Shown: positions 8,478 to 50,137 of the stretch, one piece after another | How positions within the stretch are numbered: position 1 is the stretch's first letter | How the letters are laid out: each line of letters starts with the position of its first letter | Source: a virus | Taxonomy: Duplodnaviria > Caudoviricetes | DNA length: 64,000 bases | Virus record (IMG/VR): IMGVR_UViG_3300021255_005861 | Coordinates: 64,001 to 128,000 of that record | Direction: 5' to 3' (one strand) | The notes under the pieces: generated by a model | The model's database searches: none | Seen by the model: the letters and a program-made list of their open reading frames with translations, nothing else | What the model was told of the DNA's origin: nothing | Made by a program: the position numbers and the translations under genes

Positions 8478-8540
8478 GCAAGATATAAGTTGCTTTGCCC
8501 CAAAGAATAACTTATATTTTGTTCAAAGAGAAATGCTACC

Positions 8541-11005: not shown

Positions 11006-11842
11006 ATGACTAAGTTCATTCGCCCCGACCACGAGTACACAAAGCAGAAACCCGGCTACCCCAAGCCCTTCGATCCCGCATACCACGACGACATCACGCG
11101 CCAGGTGTGGCAATATATCAAGGACCACAAGGAACTAGGCCTGGACAGCGGGTGGAAGGGACACACCTTCGTAGTCCTGGACGGGAAAAATGAACTCGCC
11201 CGCATCGACTACGACCGCGACACCGACAGCATCAAGGTGGACGTGAAGGGCATCACGAAGTCCTTCCCGTTCGACGGCGCCACCATCGAGGACGTGCTCC
11301 TCCCGGTCATCGACAATGCCAAGGACGAGGCCGCCAAGACCATCTGGGCGGTCAAGTTCGACACGCCCGAAATCGCCCTTGACGAGGAATACTACTTCCG
11401 CGACGCCTGGGGACACGTGGTCAACACCGCCGTAGTGGGAGACACTGTGTACCTCGAGCCTGATGGAGACAAGGGCGAGAAGGCCATCAAGGAATGGTAC
11501 GGGGACAAGGTGTCCCGTGTGCAGATGACCGACGAGGTATATGCGATTCTCCACCCGTCCGAGTCCAAGAAGTGCGAGCGCCTCTCCGACTACGGCTACG
11601 ATGACATCGTGAAGGAGATCGCGGGCGAAGTAGAGCATACCTTCGCCGACGAGGAAATCTATGACAAGACGGACAAGTACGACGTGAAAGTAGCACTGGC
11701 GAAGGCGCTCCGTACGTGGGCCCCGGACCTGCTCCTGAACATCGCCGAGGACGCCATGGAGAAACTCGGGTACTTCGCCAAGGACTACGACGCCTTTATG
11801 TCCGTGGTGAATGATGCAGTAGGCGATGCACTGAACGACTAG
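11006..11842 (+). CDS. Multi-module hypothetical protein
   Basis: RBS GGAGG; PSESKKCE linker before an acidic C-terminal module. Confidence 0.7.
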   Translation: MTKFIRPDHEYTKQKPGYPKPFDPAYHDDITRQVWQYIKDHKELGLDSGWKGHTFVVLDGKNELARIDYDRDTDSIKVDVKGITKSFPFDGATIEDVLLPVIDNAKDEAAKTIWAVKFDTPEIALDEEYYFRDAWGHVVNTAVVGDTVYLEPDGDKGEKAIKEWYGDKVSRVQMTDEVYAILHPSESKKCERLSDYGYDDIVKEIAGEVEHTFADEEIYDKTDKYDVKVALAKALRTWAPDLLLNIAEDAMEKLGYFAKDYDAFMSVVNDAVGDALND

Positions 11843-11897
11843 AACTTTCCGCAAACATAGGTATGGCGGGCACTACGGTGCCCGCTATATTTGTACC

Positions 11898-12113
11898 ATG
11901 AACGCTTCCGACTTACCTAGACCCATATCCATGGACTACGCCCCCGCGAATTGCGGAGAGCGCACGTCTGCCGGCACCAAGCGCTCGTGCATATACTGCG
12001 GGCGCAAGACCTACCGTTACGTCATGTCCAAGCCAGTGTGCTCCTACTGCACGCCCAGGGCGGGCAAGCTCGCCCGCGAGTGGAACGACAAGCTCCCGCA
12101 CGGTGACGGCTAG
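11898..12113 (+). CDS. Small zinc-ribbon protein
   Basis: CIYC..CSYC; TATATT 6 nt upstream of the ATG. Confidence 0.55.
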   Translation: MNASDLPRPISMDYAPANCGERTSAGTKRSCIYCGRKTYRYVMSKPVCSYCTPRAGKLAREWNDKLPHGDG

Positions 12114-12130
12114 CCCCCTATATTGGTAGC

Positions 12131-14380
12131 ATGAGTAATGCCATAGCCAACATGAGCCAGTCCGACCTGTACAAGGCGGCGGCACTTGCCGAGGGGTACG
12201 AGTCCGTACCCGTAGACATAGAAACGTTTATTAACGACCCGCAGTACCTCGGACAACTGTTCGCAGGCAACGTCTATCCTTACTGGATGGAGCGCCTGAA
12301 GAAGATATACCCGAATCCGTTCTATTCCCCTGCGCAGGAAATACTAATAACCGGCTGTATAGGCGCCGGAAAGAGTGTTACCTTTTACACACAAGTTTGT
12401 TGTGAGAATACGAAAAAACTAGCAAAGAATATTACGCTTGGCGACAAGGTGTGCGGCACGGACGGGCGCTACTACCCCGTGCTCGGCATCTTCCCGCAGG
12501 GTGTCCTCCATACCTACACGCTGGACGTGCAGCTCCAATCCCCTGACGGAGACCCTGATGACGAGCCCTACGATAGCGTGGACACCAGCGACGACCATAT
12601 CTGGACGGTATACGAGGACGGGGACAAGAAGGACATGCTCACGTCCGAAATCGTGGAAGGCTTGAAGGCTGGCCGTACCTTCTGCCTGCCTACATTGTAT
12701 GGCGACCCAGGTAGGTACTTTTGTGGGTGGCATGACGCAGGATTCCAGGAATGCGTCTGTTTCCATGTGGGCAGCCCCGACCATTTGTTCGCCGTGAACA
12801 ACGGCACGTTCACGCACAATACCACGGTATCGCTCATAGGCATCCTATACGACCTGTACCGCATAACGCTCCTACGCAACCCGCACAAGAAGTGGCACCT
12901 AATCCCCACAACGCATATCGTGTTTACGCTCATCACGGCGACGATGGATCTCGCAGGAGTGGTTCTTGCCGACCAGATCATCGACGCCATATCGGCCTCC
13001 CCGTACTTCTGCTCAAAGTTGATGCCGGGTAAAGGAGACCACATCGATGAGGATATGTTCCCTCATCGCGTGGGGATATCCTTCGGTTCCCGCCAGCGTC
13101 ATAGCATGGGTAAGGCTGTTATCGGTGCTATCCTTGACGAGGCGAACTTCCAGGACGCGGTTGCCGACCAGGCGGTAAAGAACTACAACAGCATCAAGCG
13201 TCGTATGGAATCCCGCTTCATGTCCAAGGGCGGGGAACTGCCCTGCCGCCTGTGGATAGTCTCGTCCCGTACGGACAATGCTTCCTTCCTGGAGAGCCAT
13301 ATCGACGCCAACCGGAACAATCCCAAGGCGTTCATATATGAACCCGCCATATGGGAGATCAAGGCGCACCTCGGCATCTACAGCGGGAAGACATTTCCCG
13401 TGTTCATCGGCTCGGACGTGGAGCAACCAAGAATCCTACATTCGGAAAAGGAGATGGACGACTACATGGGGCGGACCATACAGGTGCCCGTAGAACTCCA
13501 GGAGTCCTTCGAGAACAACCTGCCGGGAGCATTGCAGGACTTGGCGGGCGTGGCCACCCGCAACGGCGTCAACCTCATATACAACGTGGAGGCACTAGAC
13601 AGGTCGATGTGCCTCGACAACTGCATGAAGTCCGACGAACTGCACCTCACGCTCGACGGCGACGACCAGATCGCCGACTTCTACAAGGGCAACCTACCGC
13701 AGGGCAAGTACTACGTCCACCTGGACGGCGGCCTCAAGAGCGACCGCTTCGGCTTTGCCATGACCCGAGTCACCGAGCACATATCGGTGGATGTGACCTC
13801 CGCCGTGGACGGTATGAAGACGAGCCGCATCAGCCCCTCCGTGGAAACCCCCCTCGTGTTCGGCATCAAGGCGCTCCCCGGATCCGAGGTGCCGTTCTGG
13901 AAGGTGAGGCAGTTCCTCGTGTACCTGCGCTCCCAGAAGGTAAGCATCGCCCTCGTCACGTGCGATGGCTACCAGTCCGCCGACATGATGCAGTTGCTGA
14001 TTAAATTGGGCTTCAACGCCAAGTACGCCTCCGTGGACCGCACGAAGGACCCGTATTTGAAACTGAGCAGCAACATACTGCTCGGGCTCATAAAGATGCC
14101 CAAGTCCCCTATCCTGCGCAACGAACTGATGAACCTGCAGAACCTGCCCAAGAAGATAGACCACCCCGCCACGATAATGGTGGACGGGAAGCAGGTCGCG
14201 GGCGGAAAGGACATCGCGGACGCCGTGGCCGCCAGTTCCTACGAGGCGATAGGGGCGTCCATGACGCTCGGCGCATCCTCGCTCATCAATATGCAGAAGA
14301 GCGCCCCCGTGCACATGAACATGCGGGAGCGCCAGGAGTTCGTGATGGAGAAATTCCTCAAGATACCGGTTCGGCGGTAG
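12131..14380 (+). CDS. terL: Terminase large subunit (intein-containing)
   Basis: Walker A GCIGAGK/T, Walker B AILDE, nuclease YYVHLD..., TCDGYQS, KIDHP...KDIADAVA. Confidence 0.88.
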   Translation: MSNAIANMSQSDLYKAAALAEGYESVPVDIETFINDPQYLGQLFAGNVYPYWMERLKKIYPNPFYSPAQEILITGCIGAGKSVTFYTQVCCENTKKLAKNITLGDKVCGTDGRYYPVLGIFPQGVLHTYTLDVQLQSPDGDPDDEPYDSVDTSDDHIWTVYEDGDKKDMLTSEIVEGLKAGRTFCLPTLYGDPGRYFCGWHDAGFQECVCFHVGSPDHLFAVNNGTFTHNTTVSLIGILYDLYRITLLRNPHKKWHLIPTTHIVFTLITATMDLAGVVLADQIIDAISASPYFCSKLMPGKGDHIDEDMFPHRVGISFGSRQRHSMGKAVIGAILDEANFQDAVADQAVKNYNSIKRRMESRFMSKGGELPCRLWIVSSRTDNASFLESHIDANRNNPKAFIYEPAIWEIKAHLGIYSGKTFPVFIGSDVEQPRILHSEKEMDDYMGRTIQVPVELQESFENNLPGALQDLAGVATRNGVNLIYNVEALDRSMCLDNCMKSDELHLTLDGDDQIADFYKGNLPQGKYYVHLDGGLKSDRFGFAMTRVTEHISVDVTSAVDGMKTSRISPSVETPLVFGIKALPGSEVPFWKVRQFLVYLRSQKVSIALVTCDGYQSADMMQLLIKLGFNAKYASVDRTKDPYLKLSSNILLGLIKMPKSPILRNELMNLQNLPKKIDHPATIMVDGKQVAGGKDIADAVAASSYEAIGASMTLGASSLINMQKSAPVHMNMRERQEFVMEKFLKIPVRR
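12374..12820 (+). other. Mini-intein (149 aa, no homing endonuclease) inside the terminase Walker A motif
   Basis: GAGK|SVTFYT...SDDHIWTV (block B His)...NGTFTHN|T. Confidence 0.88.
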
Positions 14381-14744
14381 GCTTCTTTCCGTAGTCCTCG
14401 CCGTAGATGACCTTGGCCCCGATTATCTCGCGCAGGGCGTAGCGGGTCTTGCCGTTGAGGTTGTCGTGCTGCATCCTGTAGAACTCGACGCAGTTCTCCA
14501 CGGGGAGGTCCTTGAACAGGTTGACGACTGTCGCGTCGGCGGGTTCCTTGTAGGAGGGCTTCTTGCGGTTTTCGGGGGCGGGGCCGTCGGGATAAATGGT
14601 TTTTGTTCCTACGAGGGCTCGCATGAGGAAGCGGGACTGGAAGGGGAATTCCTGGGCGTGCTCCTTATAGAACGTCAGCGCCTCGTTGATGGGGGCTTTC
14701 GAGAACCAGTTCAGTTTTTCCTTCAGCTCCAGTGGGATGTTCAT
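14358..14744 (-). CDS. Hypothetical protein with two internal repeats
   Basis: RBS AGGAG; LVGTKTIY / IIGAKVIY repeats. Confidence 0.65.
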   Translation of the reverse strand: MNIPLELKEKLNWFSKAPINEALTFYKEHAQEFPFQSRFLMRALVGTKTIYPDGPAPENRKKPSYKEPADATVVNLFKDLPVENCVEFYRMQHDNLNGKTRYALREIIGAKVIYGEDYGKKPTAEPVS

Positions 14745-14806
14745 AGTGGGTCTCCTATATTGTGGGTAGAAAAAATATAGTAAGTGGGCAAAATCTTACT
14801 TTTTAC

Positions 14807-14835
14807 TTGCCAAATTGTTAGGAAATATATATATT
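14807..14835 (+). promoter_or_regulatory. Sigma70-like promoter
   Basis: TTGCCA-17 nt-TATATT. Confidence 0.65.
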
Positions 14836-14916
14836 AAGTACCGTGCAATGAGTTTTAGTCTCATATACGCCCGTACTTGTATATTGGACAGATTTGAATT
14901 ATTTTTTTAGTTCAAG

Positions 14917-14954
14917 AAAATCCTTAGGAAGTACGGGTTCCTAGGGTTTTTTTT
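14917..14954 (+). terminator. Terminator hairpin (possibly conditional)
   Basis: AAAATCC-T-TAGGAA / TTCCTA-GGGTTTT plus T8; AAGTACGGG (14929-14937) is complementary to CCCGTACTT (14870-14878). Confidence 0.6.
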
Positions 14955-14964
14955 GTACCCATAT

Positions 14965-15625
14965 ATGAGTCTAGGCATTGTATGGGCGGGAGCGACTCCC
15001 GTTACGGCGACGGCCCTGGTTTCCACGTAGGAGTGGTTATCCACGGGGGGCTGATAGAAACGAATAGACCGACTACTAGAAAAACCACAATCCATGAACA
15101 GACATAGGCGCGAGCACTGGAGGGGAATCCGAGAGTTGCGCACGAACTGCCTACGGGCAGATGCCCCCATCGGGGGACAGGCGAGAACGCCGAACTGCGG
15201 AAAACAAGTCTGCCGTGAATCCCACGGGCAGTGAGACCGCGACGGAAACCGAGCCAGCGAGCCACGGCGTCCGCACCTAAAGTGAGCGGCTGATGGCGGC
15301 ACGAGAACATGCCATCAGGCTTTCTATAAGGGCAGTGCAGCGGTGCCAGCCATACCCGTCCGAGTGACGCCCAGCACGCGTCACACATCCCGCCTTTTAA
15401 CAGTAATGTTGGTAATTACGTTCGAGAAGCCTGCACACAGGAAGACCGGCGCAGTTGGGCTACGACCCAGTAGAACGTAGCGGAGCAATCCGCCTGTCGC
15501 ACTCCAGACGCATACGAAGCCGGCCATGAGCCGAATTAGCGGTGGAGAGGATAGTCTACTTTCCGTTTTGGGGGGTAAACTGTCCTCTCCACCGCACCGA
15601 GCCGGCGCCGAGCCGAGGCGCGTTG
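14965..15625 (+). ncRNA. Putative large structured non-coding RNA (family not identified)
   Basis: No credible ORF; dense hairpins at 15147-15160, 15164-15176, 15290-15318, 15364-15384 and a long stem at 15539-15595; strand inferred from the upstream promoter. Confidence 0.5.
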
Positions 15626-15923
15626 ACGAGTTCACGAGTTAATGAGTTGAGGCGTATGAGGATGTGTGGGTGCATACGGCGGGCATGAAGGACGAACGCA
15701 GTTCGGCGTGAATGTGGAATAGGGTGAAGCCTGTGTAGGACGAACGCAGTTCGCCTGGAACACGGCGAACGAGATGACGCCGTATGTGATGGATACGAGT
15801 AAGAGCGTATGACGAGTATAGCGCGTGCTGTGCCACGATGGTTTCTAGGTAGGAGGGCTAGGTAAGAAAAATGTAAGTTGCGATGTGGTAGAGATTTAGG
15901 TATATTTAGACAAGGAGAGACAA

Positions 15924-16361
15924 GTGAGAATCAAGGTTAGCGATAGACAGCGTAACGAGATGTCCCGTGTGGGGAATCTCGGGGAGTTCGAGGTGCAGGT
16001 TTGGAGCAAGGATTGCGGTCCTGCCGTATGGACGCCTGCTCACGTATATATCTATATCCCTCATGTACACGTCTATAGTGAGGTCTCGGGACTGGATGCC
16101 TGCATCAAACTGGCTGAACCTATGTACTTTCCTTACGGCCCACACGTAGATATCCTAAACGAATCGCAGCGTAAGATGTTCAACGAGTTCATGCACCGCC
16201 CGCACCGTACAGGAAAGTTCACATCCAACTACGAGTACGCCGTGTTTCTGTGGAACGACAACAACTCGTCCCACGAGATAGAGTTGAAACTGGACGCTAA
16301 CGGGGAGGTCATTATTCCCGACTATAGCGAAATTGCAAAATATGTACCCAATAGGAGTTAG
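15924..16361 (+). CDS. DUF4160-like protein with N-terminal tag
   Basis: GTG start after AGGAG; MRIKVSDRQRNE|MSRVG..., PHVHV motif, C-terminal PDY. Confidence 0.6.
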   Translation: MRIKVSDRQRNEMSRVGNLGEFEVQVWSKDCGPAVWTPAHVYIYIPHVHVYSEVSGLDACIKLAEPMYFPYGPHVDILNESQRKMFNEFMHRPHRTGKFTSNYEYAVFLWNDNNSSHEIELKLDANGEVIIPDYSEIAKYVPNRS

Positions 16362-49779: not shown

Positions 49780-49808
49780 TTGACGGAAACCTTTTTATAT
49801 TATATATT
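49780..49808 (+). promoter_or_regulatory. Sigma70-like promoter of the tRNA operon
   Basis: TTGACG-17-TATATT. Confidence 0.75.
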
Positions 49809-49833
49809 TGAATCTGAAAAGGAAAAACTCTCT

Positions 49834-49917
49834 ATGCTGAAGACAAACGCAAATAAAAATTTCTTCCGTGCCACGGCCAGTTTCGTGGGCGGTTCTGCGA
49901 ATATCCAGCGGTGGTAG
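49834..49917 (+). CDS. Putative leader peptide MLKTNANKNFFRATASFVGGSANIQRW
   Basis: AAGGA upstream; its 3' end overlaps the antiterminator arm. Confidence 0.6.
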   Translation: MLKTNANKNFFRATASFVGGSANIQRW

Positions 49918-49974
49918 AGTTTTTCCAAGTGCTTAACGAGAATAGCCCCCCGCTGGAACAAGCGGGGCCTTTTT
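49904..49974 (+). promoter_or_regulatory. Terminator/antiterminator switch
   Basis: Terminator CCCCGCT-ggaaca-AGCGGGG plus T5; TCCAGCGG (49904-49911) pairs with CCGCTGGA (49950-49957). Confidence 0.65.
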
Positions 49975-49981
49975 CGTATAT

Positions 49982-50054
49982 GCCAAGGCATCCTATCGTG
50001 GGAAAGGACGGGACTGAAAATCTCAGAAACCCGGTTCAACTCCGGGACTTGGCA
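49982..50054 (+). tRNA. tRNA-Phe(GAA)
   Basis: GCCAAG/CTTGGC acceptor stem, loop CTGAAAA, CCCGG-TTCAACT-CCGGG. Confidence 0.8.
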
Positions 50055-50063
50055 CGAACATAT

Positions 50064-50137
50064 CGGCGTGTGGCGCAACTGGATAGCGCAGCGGACCTTT
50101 AATCCGCGGGGTCTAGGTTCAAGTCCTGGTACGCCGA
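50064..50137 (+). tRNA. tRNA-Lys(UUU) with C33
   Basis: Full cloverleaf; GCGGA-CCTTTAA-TCCGC. Confidence 0.88.

Follow-up and report, generated by a model that had tools for sequence, protein, structure and literature searches.

A probable structured RNA gene of ~800 nt with a cow-rumen-2-like centre, opening the early region in a large uncultured phage

The DNA considered here, called the window, comprises bases 64001-128000 (64,000 nt) of the 185.7-kb IMG/VR virus record IMGVR_UViG_3300021255_005861, which is classed as a provirus and probably represents an uncultured rumen phage of ~185 kb. At the head of the phage early region lies a gene-free gap (14781-15923, 1143 nt) that very likely holds a structured RNA gene. 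The initial annotation, made by a model from the sequence alone, had noticed a gap of about 1 kb; it is the largest in the window when measured crudely, as the longest run without a plus-strand open reading frame (ORF) that reaches 70 aa; the second longest has 484 nt. The gap is bounded by the gene for the terminase large subunit (TerL) and the divergently oriented orf128 on one side and by orf145 on the other (Table 1). The promoter TTGCCA-17-TATATT named in the initial annotation was found where it had been placed (P1, 14807-14835). Its motif, TTGnnn-N16-18-TATATT, occurs in the 185-kb genome 14 times on the plus strand and twice on the minus strand, including before the tRNA cluster and several genes, with window sites at 8490, 14807, 15878, 36900, 39254, 49780 and 52116, and is probably the standard host-type (sigma-70-like) promoter of this phage. 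Transcription from P1 would start near 14842. The parallel that had been drawn with the tRNA operon is real as a layout only (promoter, short ORF, terminator, RNA genes). In front of that tRNA cluster (Lys, Ala, later Asn and Gly; window 49780-50064) stand a copy of the motif, an ORF of 28 codons (49835-49918) and, together with a T-run, a strong terminator (49948-49967).

Table 1. Annotated and predicted features of the locus, in window coordinates
Feature	Position	Strand	Remarks
TerL gene	12131-14380	+	weak PHROG match, 749 aa
orf128	14358-14744	-	128 aa; divergent from the RNA gene; overlaps end of TerL gene
Promoter P1, TTGCCA-17-TATATT	14807-14835	+	recurrent motif; conserved in relatives; TTGACA in L022 and L024
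5' domain, single long irregular hairpin	14841-14985	+	minimum free energy (MFE) fold and alifold
20-codon ORF	14848-14910	+	not conserved
Anti-terminator helix	14869-14878 with 14929-14938	+	exact complement; two double compensatory changes
Terminator-like hairpin, 9 bp	14922-14946, U8 at 14947-14954	+	mutually exclusive with anti-terminator helix
Core, first half	14986-15346	+	most conserved part; chain of short hairpins, A-rich linkers, C(UACG)G tetraloop
Cow-rumen-2-like module	15347-15500	+	RF02947 fragments; reciprocal model R2; covarying hairpin
Twin small hairpins CGGC-N5-GCCG	15521-15533 and 15603-15615	+	flank the long hairpin
Long hairpin, ~25 bp (17+8)	15539-15595	+	distal half varies in sequence, pairing kept
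Near-invariant 3' tail	15596-15640	+	length variation among relatives starts just beyond
Purine-rich variable spacer	15641-15877		two 13-bp palindromes CGAACGCAGTTCG at 15693-15705 and 15741-15753
Promoter-like P2, TTGCGA-17-TATATT (15878-15906), with ribosome-binding site	15878-15923	+	before orf145; conserved in all relatives
orf145	15924-16361	+	heads a long plus-strand gene run including a PD-(D/E)XK exonuclease and a phosphoesterase

Copies of the element were recovered via neighbouring proteins and DNA patterns from IMG/VR (L002, L003), Logan assemblies (L022, equal to L023; L024; the partial L025), a JGI metagenome (L029) and ENA (L081, equal to L082), the L-numbers being those of the relative and sister phage contigs used for comparison. 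Seven distinct full or nearly full copies share the same gene order and are 88-98% identical over 14836-15640. Distant-mode blastn found no match to the element in GenBank phages, and neither a core 23-mer nor TerL relatives were found in 185,579 species genomes. Four core 19-29-mers returned only the same two contigs from IMG/VR, and a gapped pattern in JGI metagenomes gave one new copy and nine chance matches. Within the collections searched, the element is restricted to one small lineage of large uncultured phages.

Between 14985 and 15640, substitutions favour no codon position in any of the six frames (e.g., 35/41/37), and the synonymous to nonsynonymous ratio is ~1:3; the flanking genes have an excess at third positions (32/25/65 in orf128, and 112/102/159). 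The copies are further set apart by indels of 1 and 2 nt within stretches that hardly vary otherwise. The stretch 14841-15640 is non-coding. Its fold (14836-15640) has z-scores of -6.3 on the plus strand and -5.0 on the minus strand, and two 805-nt coding stretches of the same window used as controls gave -0.8 and 0.0. For covariation, a fold with helices spanning less than 80 nt was predicted from the window alone and its pairs were scored on the other copies, with a null in which partners were redrawn among columns of the same base (500-1000 redraws). Seven double changes preserve pairing in 14836-15640 versus 1.3-1.5 expected (~5-fold), and 55-59% of the variant pairs stay canonical versus 34-36% expected, values that were matched in 0 or 1 of the 500-1000 redraws. 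The same test on a TerL control of 1065 nt gave 0-1 double changes and 30% paired versus 33% expected. Compensatory changes in the core lie at 15014/15050 and 15026/15033 (two helices, C-G to U-A in L024), at 15251/15265 (G-C to A-U in L029) and, in the long hairpin, at 15555/15579 (U-A to A-U), while much of the variation between copies is found in hairpin loops. The helices of 14841-15640 are maintained by compensatory changes, and the structure is under selection. The large structured non-coding RNA gene with its own promoter that the initial annotation had proposed is thereby upheld by non-coding substitutions, by a strong fold and by compensatory changes in excess of the matched null and the coding controls. 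The extent needs one correction, as the structured part ends near 15640: 15641-15923 has a z-score of only -1.4 and 15641-15900 shows no compensatory changes (kept fraction 0.25 versus 0.38 under the null).

The 5' domain is predicted to be closed by helix 14841-14850/14976-14985, followed by a second helix of 12 bp (14854-14867/14962-14974) that is perfect in L002 through two changes; the pair 14863/14966 of this helix changes from A-U to C-G in L002. Covariation also supports the apical part, at 14888/14921. The terminator-like hairpin described in the initial annotation was located, followed by T8, and the complementarity noted between its loop region and the short ORF is exact, as AAGTACGGG (14929-14937) is the complement of CCCGTACTT (14870-14878). 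In the resulting anti-terminator helix, 14872/14935 changes from C-G to A-U and 14875/14932 from A-U to C-G, both in L022 and L024. All six variants keep the terminator-like hairpin and four of the six keep its U-run, which is broken to CUUCCUUAU in L002 and L029. In the same two relatives GGGU/ACCC (14944-14947 with 14957-14960) covaries to GGGC/GCCC, so that the U-run appears to double as the loop of a small conserved hairpin. When the nascent transcript is folded to 14946, the anti-terminator fold has the MFE in six of six variants, and the fold with an enforced terminator hairpin is 1-6 kcal/mol less stable; the MFE structure of the full 5' domain contains the terminator hairpin in three of six. 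The 5' domain is thermodynamically bistable in these predictions. With a covarying anti-terminator helix and folds only 1-6 kcal/mol apart, an RNA-intrinsic switch with read-through as its default is plausible, and our confidence that it operates as a functional terminator switch falls a little short of even.

The 20-codon ORF within this domain is present as initially annotated and reads MSFSLIYARTCILDRFELFF up to its stop codon. L002 and L029 have AAG in place of its AUG start codon, the frame shifts after codon 7 in L022 and L024 through the insertion of 1 nt, and no Shine-Dalgarno sequence was found for it. The ORF is most likely untranslated, and leader-peptide attenuation was rejected because start codon or frame are lost in relatives and a Shine-Dalgarno sequence is absent. 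Of the attenuation control suggested by the initial annotation, what survives is a covarying anti-terminator helix and two folds close in energy; the leader-peptide mechanism is unsupported, as the ORF is not conserved.

Downstream of the 5' domain, identity to the window is 97-99% over 15001-15200, including an 80-nt invariant run, and 88-96% over the remaining core, and small flanking genes are down to 48-85% identity in several relatives. Conservation at the end of TerL is similar to that of the core, which is thus not a unique peak. The long stem reported at 15539-15595 is confirmed, with 21-nt arms that are 90% complementary and fold as 17+8 bp; it may serve as an RNase III site or as a protector of the 3' end. 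A 13-nt perfect complement (15187-15199/15697-15709) closes a domain in the MFE structure and was rejected as a conserved helix: L002 has lost its 3' arm, and in L003, L025 and L029 this arm has a change that is not compensated.

A search with cmscan against Rfam 15, one of the checks proposed in the initial annotation, found nothing on the element at gathering scores, and with E-values up to 10 it returned for the window only microRNA matches on the long stem, which we dismissed as generic long-hairpin noise. No tmRNA, RNase P, group I or II intron or riboswitch match to the element was obtained with the Rfam models and ARAGORN, the latter reporting only four distant tRNAs, in agreement with the initial annotation, which had seen no tmRNA, RNase P or intron signatures. 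The models of GOLLD, ROOL, OLE, HEARO and raiA likewise gave no match at E-values up to 10 in the window region and two relatives. For the most conserved block, 14980-15350, Rfam gave no match at all with E-values up to 10. The element had been called possibly new, and this holds insofar as no Rfam family matches at threshold; its centre (15347-15500), however, resembles a catalogued motif, cow-rumen-2, below threshold.

The cow-rumen-2 motif (Rfam RF02947, 106 nt) is listed in the Rfam 15 paper (PMC11701678). Its model matched the element in two fragments, at 15358-15403 (15.5 bits, model positions 1-41 at 15358-15398 plus the end) and at 15426-15458 (14.8 bits, model 55-86), which are 23 nt apart on the same strand and in model order and are the only matches in the 185-kb genome (371 kb of searched strand, E up to 10). 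L029 likewise gave two collinear fragments (18.3 bits). The module consists of a 7-bp hairpin (15363-15383) with a 7-nt loop and three covarying pairs, a CCCGCC linker, and a helix UACGUUC/GAACGUA (15418-15424 with 15474-15480) that encloses AGCC and a hairpin with ACAGGAAGACC; it has three extra hairpins. The loop of the first hairpin is CUAGCAA in L003, L022, L024 and L029, CCAGCAC in the window and CCCGCAA in L002, and the CCCGCC linker is invariant and at the expected distance from the hairpin. In these features the family agrees with cow-rumen-2, which can be recognized by a 7-bp 5' hairpin with a YUAGCAA loop and a following linker with GCCGCC. At the place of the outer helix of the motif (GUAGC and hairpin ACAGGAUGACC), UACGUUC/GAACGUA and GAAGCC are present, with a U-U in one variant. 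ACAGGAAGACC is found in the window, L022 and L029, and ACCGCAAGACC or ACAGCAAGACC in the other four variants.

For comparison we used 40 IMG/VR loci picked by a pattern from the most conserved stretch of the motif, 36 of which were genuine cow-rumen-2 and some of which come from the same samples as the relatives of the window phage. An alignment of 16 genuine loci places the known motif within a ~300-nt RNA that ends in a terminator hairpin. Model R2, built from 15345-15500 of the window family, aligns full-length and collinearly to canonical cow-rumen-2 RNAs and, with filters off, scored 12-17 bits on six of them, at rough E-values of 0.001-0.04. All of its top eight matches in 70 kb fall on the motif, and matches to unrelated sequence begin at 5.9 bits. 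Matched in the alignment are the 7-bp hairpin with its 7-nt YUAGCAA loop, which as CUAGCAA is identical in four variants of the window family, the CCGCC linker 4-6 nt on, GGUA, the enclosing helix, AGCC and the small inner hairpin with ACAGGA-GACC (an ACA bulge and a GGA-GACC loop region). All aligned helices differ in sequence between the window family and the canonical RNAs and pair in register; the three hairpins found in the window family alone are deleted. Both RNAs occur in large uncultured phages of the same metagenome samples. They differ in length, ~300 nt with a terminator hairpin at the end in the canonical RNAs versus ~800 nt here, and the window RNA has a 145-nt 5' switch domain, a highly conserved block of 360 nt without counterpart and the three inserted hairpins, and is found in a different phage lineage.

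By the Rfam criterion the element is not a member of cow-rumen-2, and several points weigh against the kinship. The forward scores (15.5 and 14.8 bits) do not reach the RF02947 gathering threshold of 66 bits. Model R1, built from the 16 canonical RNAs, gave the element 13 bits at E ~2, although its sole two matches in 104 kb are at the element. The loci used with R2 were pre-selected by a pattern partly resembling the query, the forward and reverse tests rest on the same features, and an nhmmer search with the window-family profile found no match in the 40 cow-rumen-2 loci. Moreover, the near-invariant ACAGGA-GACC and UAGCAA letters of the motif vary within the window family. A new large RNA family that is unrelated to cow-rumen-2 and resembles it by chance or convergence would be favoured by forward scores far under threshold, by the lack of nhmmer similarity, by varying motif letters, including CCAGCAC in the window loop and ACCGCAAGACC for ACAGGAAGACC, and by a most conserved half (14986-15346) that matches nothing. 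Against it stand two collinear matches that are the sole ones in 371 kb of searched strand, a reciprocal alignment with three helices in register through compensatory differences and five collinear single-stranded motifs, and the shared setting in large phages of the same samples. We consider an unrelated family unlikely, yet the most serious of the alternatives, and under it the RNA gene and its cassette behaviour would still hold. It is fairly likely, judging from these alignments, that the element belongs to the same motif class as cow-rumen-2; the resemblance of its centre suggests a divergent, much enlarged variant rather than a wholly new class.

The RNA gene itself also has evidence against it to be weighed. 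Of the 44 variant pairs in predicted local helices, 20 are broken, and much of the predicted fold is therefore wrong or unconstrained, so that the full secondary structure is not established. With seven distinct copies of 88-98% identity, the set is too small and too uniform for a formal test of the R-scape type, and covariation power is low. The strands are hardly separated by energy over 14836-15640 (-315 kcal/mol on plus versus -310 on minus; alifold -275 versus -277), and the counts of G-U versus A-C variants (24 versus 22) favour neither strand. Start, end, strand and expression of the RNA are all inferred. With no terminator after the core, the RNA could continue into orf145. Pointers to the plus strand are the promoter motif ratio of 14:2, the 39% A among predicted unpaired bases, UNCG and GNRA loops (UACG, GCAA, GUAA) that are readable on the plus strand alone, G-U intermediates of the hairpin 15363-15383, which the minus strand would show as A-C mismatches, and a whole-gap MFE that is 32 kcal/mol lower on plus (-408 versus -376).

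Sister phages without the RNA indicate how the locus behaves. L079 and L080, whose orf128 is 71-81% identical, keep TerL, orf128 and the divergent promoter region, and their similarity to the window stops at 14805-14818, the -35 element of P1. In L080 the slot holds a SAM lyase gene (PF23780; L080:3041-3781) with its own promoter-like site and a leader hairpin, and in L079 a 92-aa ORF and a TnpB element. In L004-L006, TerL is followed directly by TnpB, exonuclease or phosphoesterase genes, and the whole contigs are without a copy of the RNA. More distant orf145 homologs (~50% identity; L019, L021) have no RNA-sized gap. The gene after the RNA varies as well: the window has orf145, L003, L022 and L025 have an extra gene of 146 aa, and in L081 orf176 follows directly. 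The RNA with its promoter thus appears, from these gene orders, to behave as an accessory early gene on a dispensable cassette. The existence of sister phages that lack it and carry other cargo in the slot argues against an origin, a packaging site or an obligatory leader.

Further observations concern the slot and its neighbours. The slot, matching window 14819-15923, is a hotspot for exchangeable early cargo. TnpB (OrfB_IS605/Cas12f-like) recurs near the locus (L002:9559-10824; L006:8602-9897 and 11305-13041; L079:2209-3432), and in L002 the right end of a TnpB element replaces the -35 of P1. The stretch with promoter and ribosome-binding site at 15887-15924 recurs with 81% identity between early genes of L022 (6098-6135), and such recurrence may give recombination points for cassette exchange. 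The TerL of L002 (6001-8955) has 984 aa versus 749 in the window and contains an intein (Pfam Intein_splicing, residues 82-455); the TerL of L081 (1009 aa) bears the same Pfam intein mark, and that of L006 has 828 aa. Homologs of orf128 occur in every relative, RNA present or not, and by eye the protein resembles a tandem duplication of a ~55-aa unit, each half ending G-x-K-x-IY-x-(D/E)-x-G-like. No family or function was obtained for orf128, orf145 or orf176 from Pfam, PHROGs, NCBIfam or the ESM Atlas.

The region could instead be the long structured 5' leader of an early operon that starts with orf145, its fold controlling expression or stability. No plus-strand intrinsic terminator was found between 14955 and 15923, the downstream genes are all on the same strand, and a switchable terminator near the promoter is typical of leaders. 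Such a leader is nevertheless improbable, given that a conserved promoter-like site (P2) and a ribosome-binding site directly precede orf145, that the downstream gene changes (orf145, the 146-aa gene, orf176) while the RNA is constant, that homologs of orf145 or orf176 occur without the RNA in L079, L080, L019 and L021, and that the 280 nt between fold and gene are unstructured and tolerate indels.

Deletions of 8-54 nt are found in the spacer of relatives. Its two CGAACGCAGTTCG palindromes, 48 bp apart, have no further copies in the genome, and L002 has lost one of the two by deletion. The palindromes could act as paired operators of the promoter at 15878-15906, and the stretch 15641-15877, outside the folded RNA, probably controls the next gene at the DNA level. 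That the whole element acts at the DNA level, as a replication origin (perhaps primed by a transcript, as in ColE1 RNA II) or as a packaging site near the terminase, would suit its position between the terminase module and replication and recombination genes, the AT-rich 250 bp (36% GC) beside GC-rich DNA with a local change in GC skew, and the two unique palindromes. This is very improbable: the whole element is missing in close relatives (L079, L080, L004-L006), which is incompatible with an origin or packaging site, cumulative GC skew over the whole genome reaches no extremum here, no array of iterons was detected, and compensatory changes join arms that are 50-100 nt apart. Together with the UNCG and GNRA loops, the compensatory changes point to selection on RNA rather than duplex DNA. 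A replication origin, which the initial annotation had named among the things that the region might be instead, is contradicted by the same relatives and skew profile.

Least credible, to a degree that makes it negligible, is a decayed or unusual protein gene (an ORF of 162-165 aa, or minus-strand ORFs of 128-131 aa): frames of 160-190 codons are open in some variants, yet the long minus-strand frames result from the purine-rich composition of the plus strand, no frame shows codon periodicity, near-identical copies break the frames by 1-2-nt indels, and the 162-165-aa ORF called in public assemblies (L022:3086-3583, L024:437-925) is interrupted in the window and differs between L022 and L024 by 17 nonsynonymous versus 6 synonymous codons. 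Spurious calls of this ORF inside the RNA gene will seed false protein clusters.

On balance, we favour a stand-alone structured ncRNA gene of ~800 nt on the plus strand, from ~14842 to ~15640, with a cow-rumen-2-like core and carried on a dispensable cassette. In the mechanism we propose, host RNA polymerase would start at P1, and the first ~145 nt would fold into a long hairpin in which 14869-14878 pairs with 14929-14938. This pairing would pre-empt the terminator hairpin 14922-14946 and so make read-through the default; were the 5' arm occupied by some factor, only a ~110-nt RNA would be made. The core of ~650 nt would fold into some twenty hairpins around the diverged and enlarged cow-rumen-2 module (15347-15500), and the 25-bp hairpin 15539-15595 would mark or protect the 3' end, possibly via RNase III. 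Early in infection the RNA would then work in trans, binding some phage or host factor as a scaffold or decoy. A trans-acting accessory or anti-defence role is a tentative suggestion, one we rate below the switch. It was proposed, as a part in host takeover or counter-defence, because a sister phage has a SAM lyase in the same slot; against it must be said that the SAM lyase is a functional hint and not evidence, the guess being drawn from genomic position alone. More speculative, and unlikely in its entirety, is the view that the cow-rumen-2 fold is a portable core of otherwise unrelated phage RNAs, ~300 nt in T4-like rumen phages and ~800 nt here, in the latter combined with an early host-type promoter, a bistable terminator gate and a 360-nt ultra-conserved block into a host-takeover or counter-defence device that is interchangeable with a SAM lyase gene; in the same view the ~800-nt RNA could also be self-assembling or catalytic.

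The closest comparisons in size are ROOL (RF03087) and GOLLD (RF01998), ornate large RNAs known from bacteria and prophages, which assemble into cages made of RNA alone (Kretsch et al. 2025, PMC12286853; Weinberg et al. 2017, PMC5737381). The window RNA shares with them the 580-800 nt size class, many short hairpins, multistem junctions and a phage-borne location, and ROOL was first found in rumen data, like the window RNA. It differs in having no sequence or structure match to either at E 10, in its very narrow distribution and in not lying beside tRNA genes, the tRNA cluster being 35 kb off. The 5' domain recalls terminator/anti-terminator leaders such as lambda PR'-tR' with its short 6S transcript, elements of RNA-intrinsic antitermination of which HK022 put is an example, and classical attenuators. 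As in these promoter-proximal leaders, a strong promoter is followed by a ~110-nt leader that ends in a hairpin and U-run, and an alternative pairing excludes the terminator; unlike them, the window RNA lacks a conserved leader peptide, neither a put-like fold nor a known antiterminator protein was identified for it, and its family loses the U-run in two of six variants. Cow-rumen-2, for its part, was reportedly one of 224 candidates in the 2017 work of Weinberg et al.

To our knowledge, bacteria and phages rarely have RNAs of 0.5-1 kb that fold in an intricate and conserved way. The known examples, ribosomal RNA, RNase P, group II introns, GOLLD, ROOL and OLE, are catalysts or RNA-only assemblies. 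The element described here is a further candidate, of ~800 nt, among the large ornate RNAs. If the link to cow-rumen-2 is true, a catalogued motif of 106 nt would be shared as a core by much larger RNAs from two or more unrelated phage lineages. The element lies on an optional cassette after a strong promoter of the early type, in a slot that holds an anti-restriction enzyme in a sister phage, which leads to a concrete and testable idea of its role. The bistable 5' domain may offer a simple system for studying how RNA controls termination in phages of little-studied rumen bacteria.

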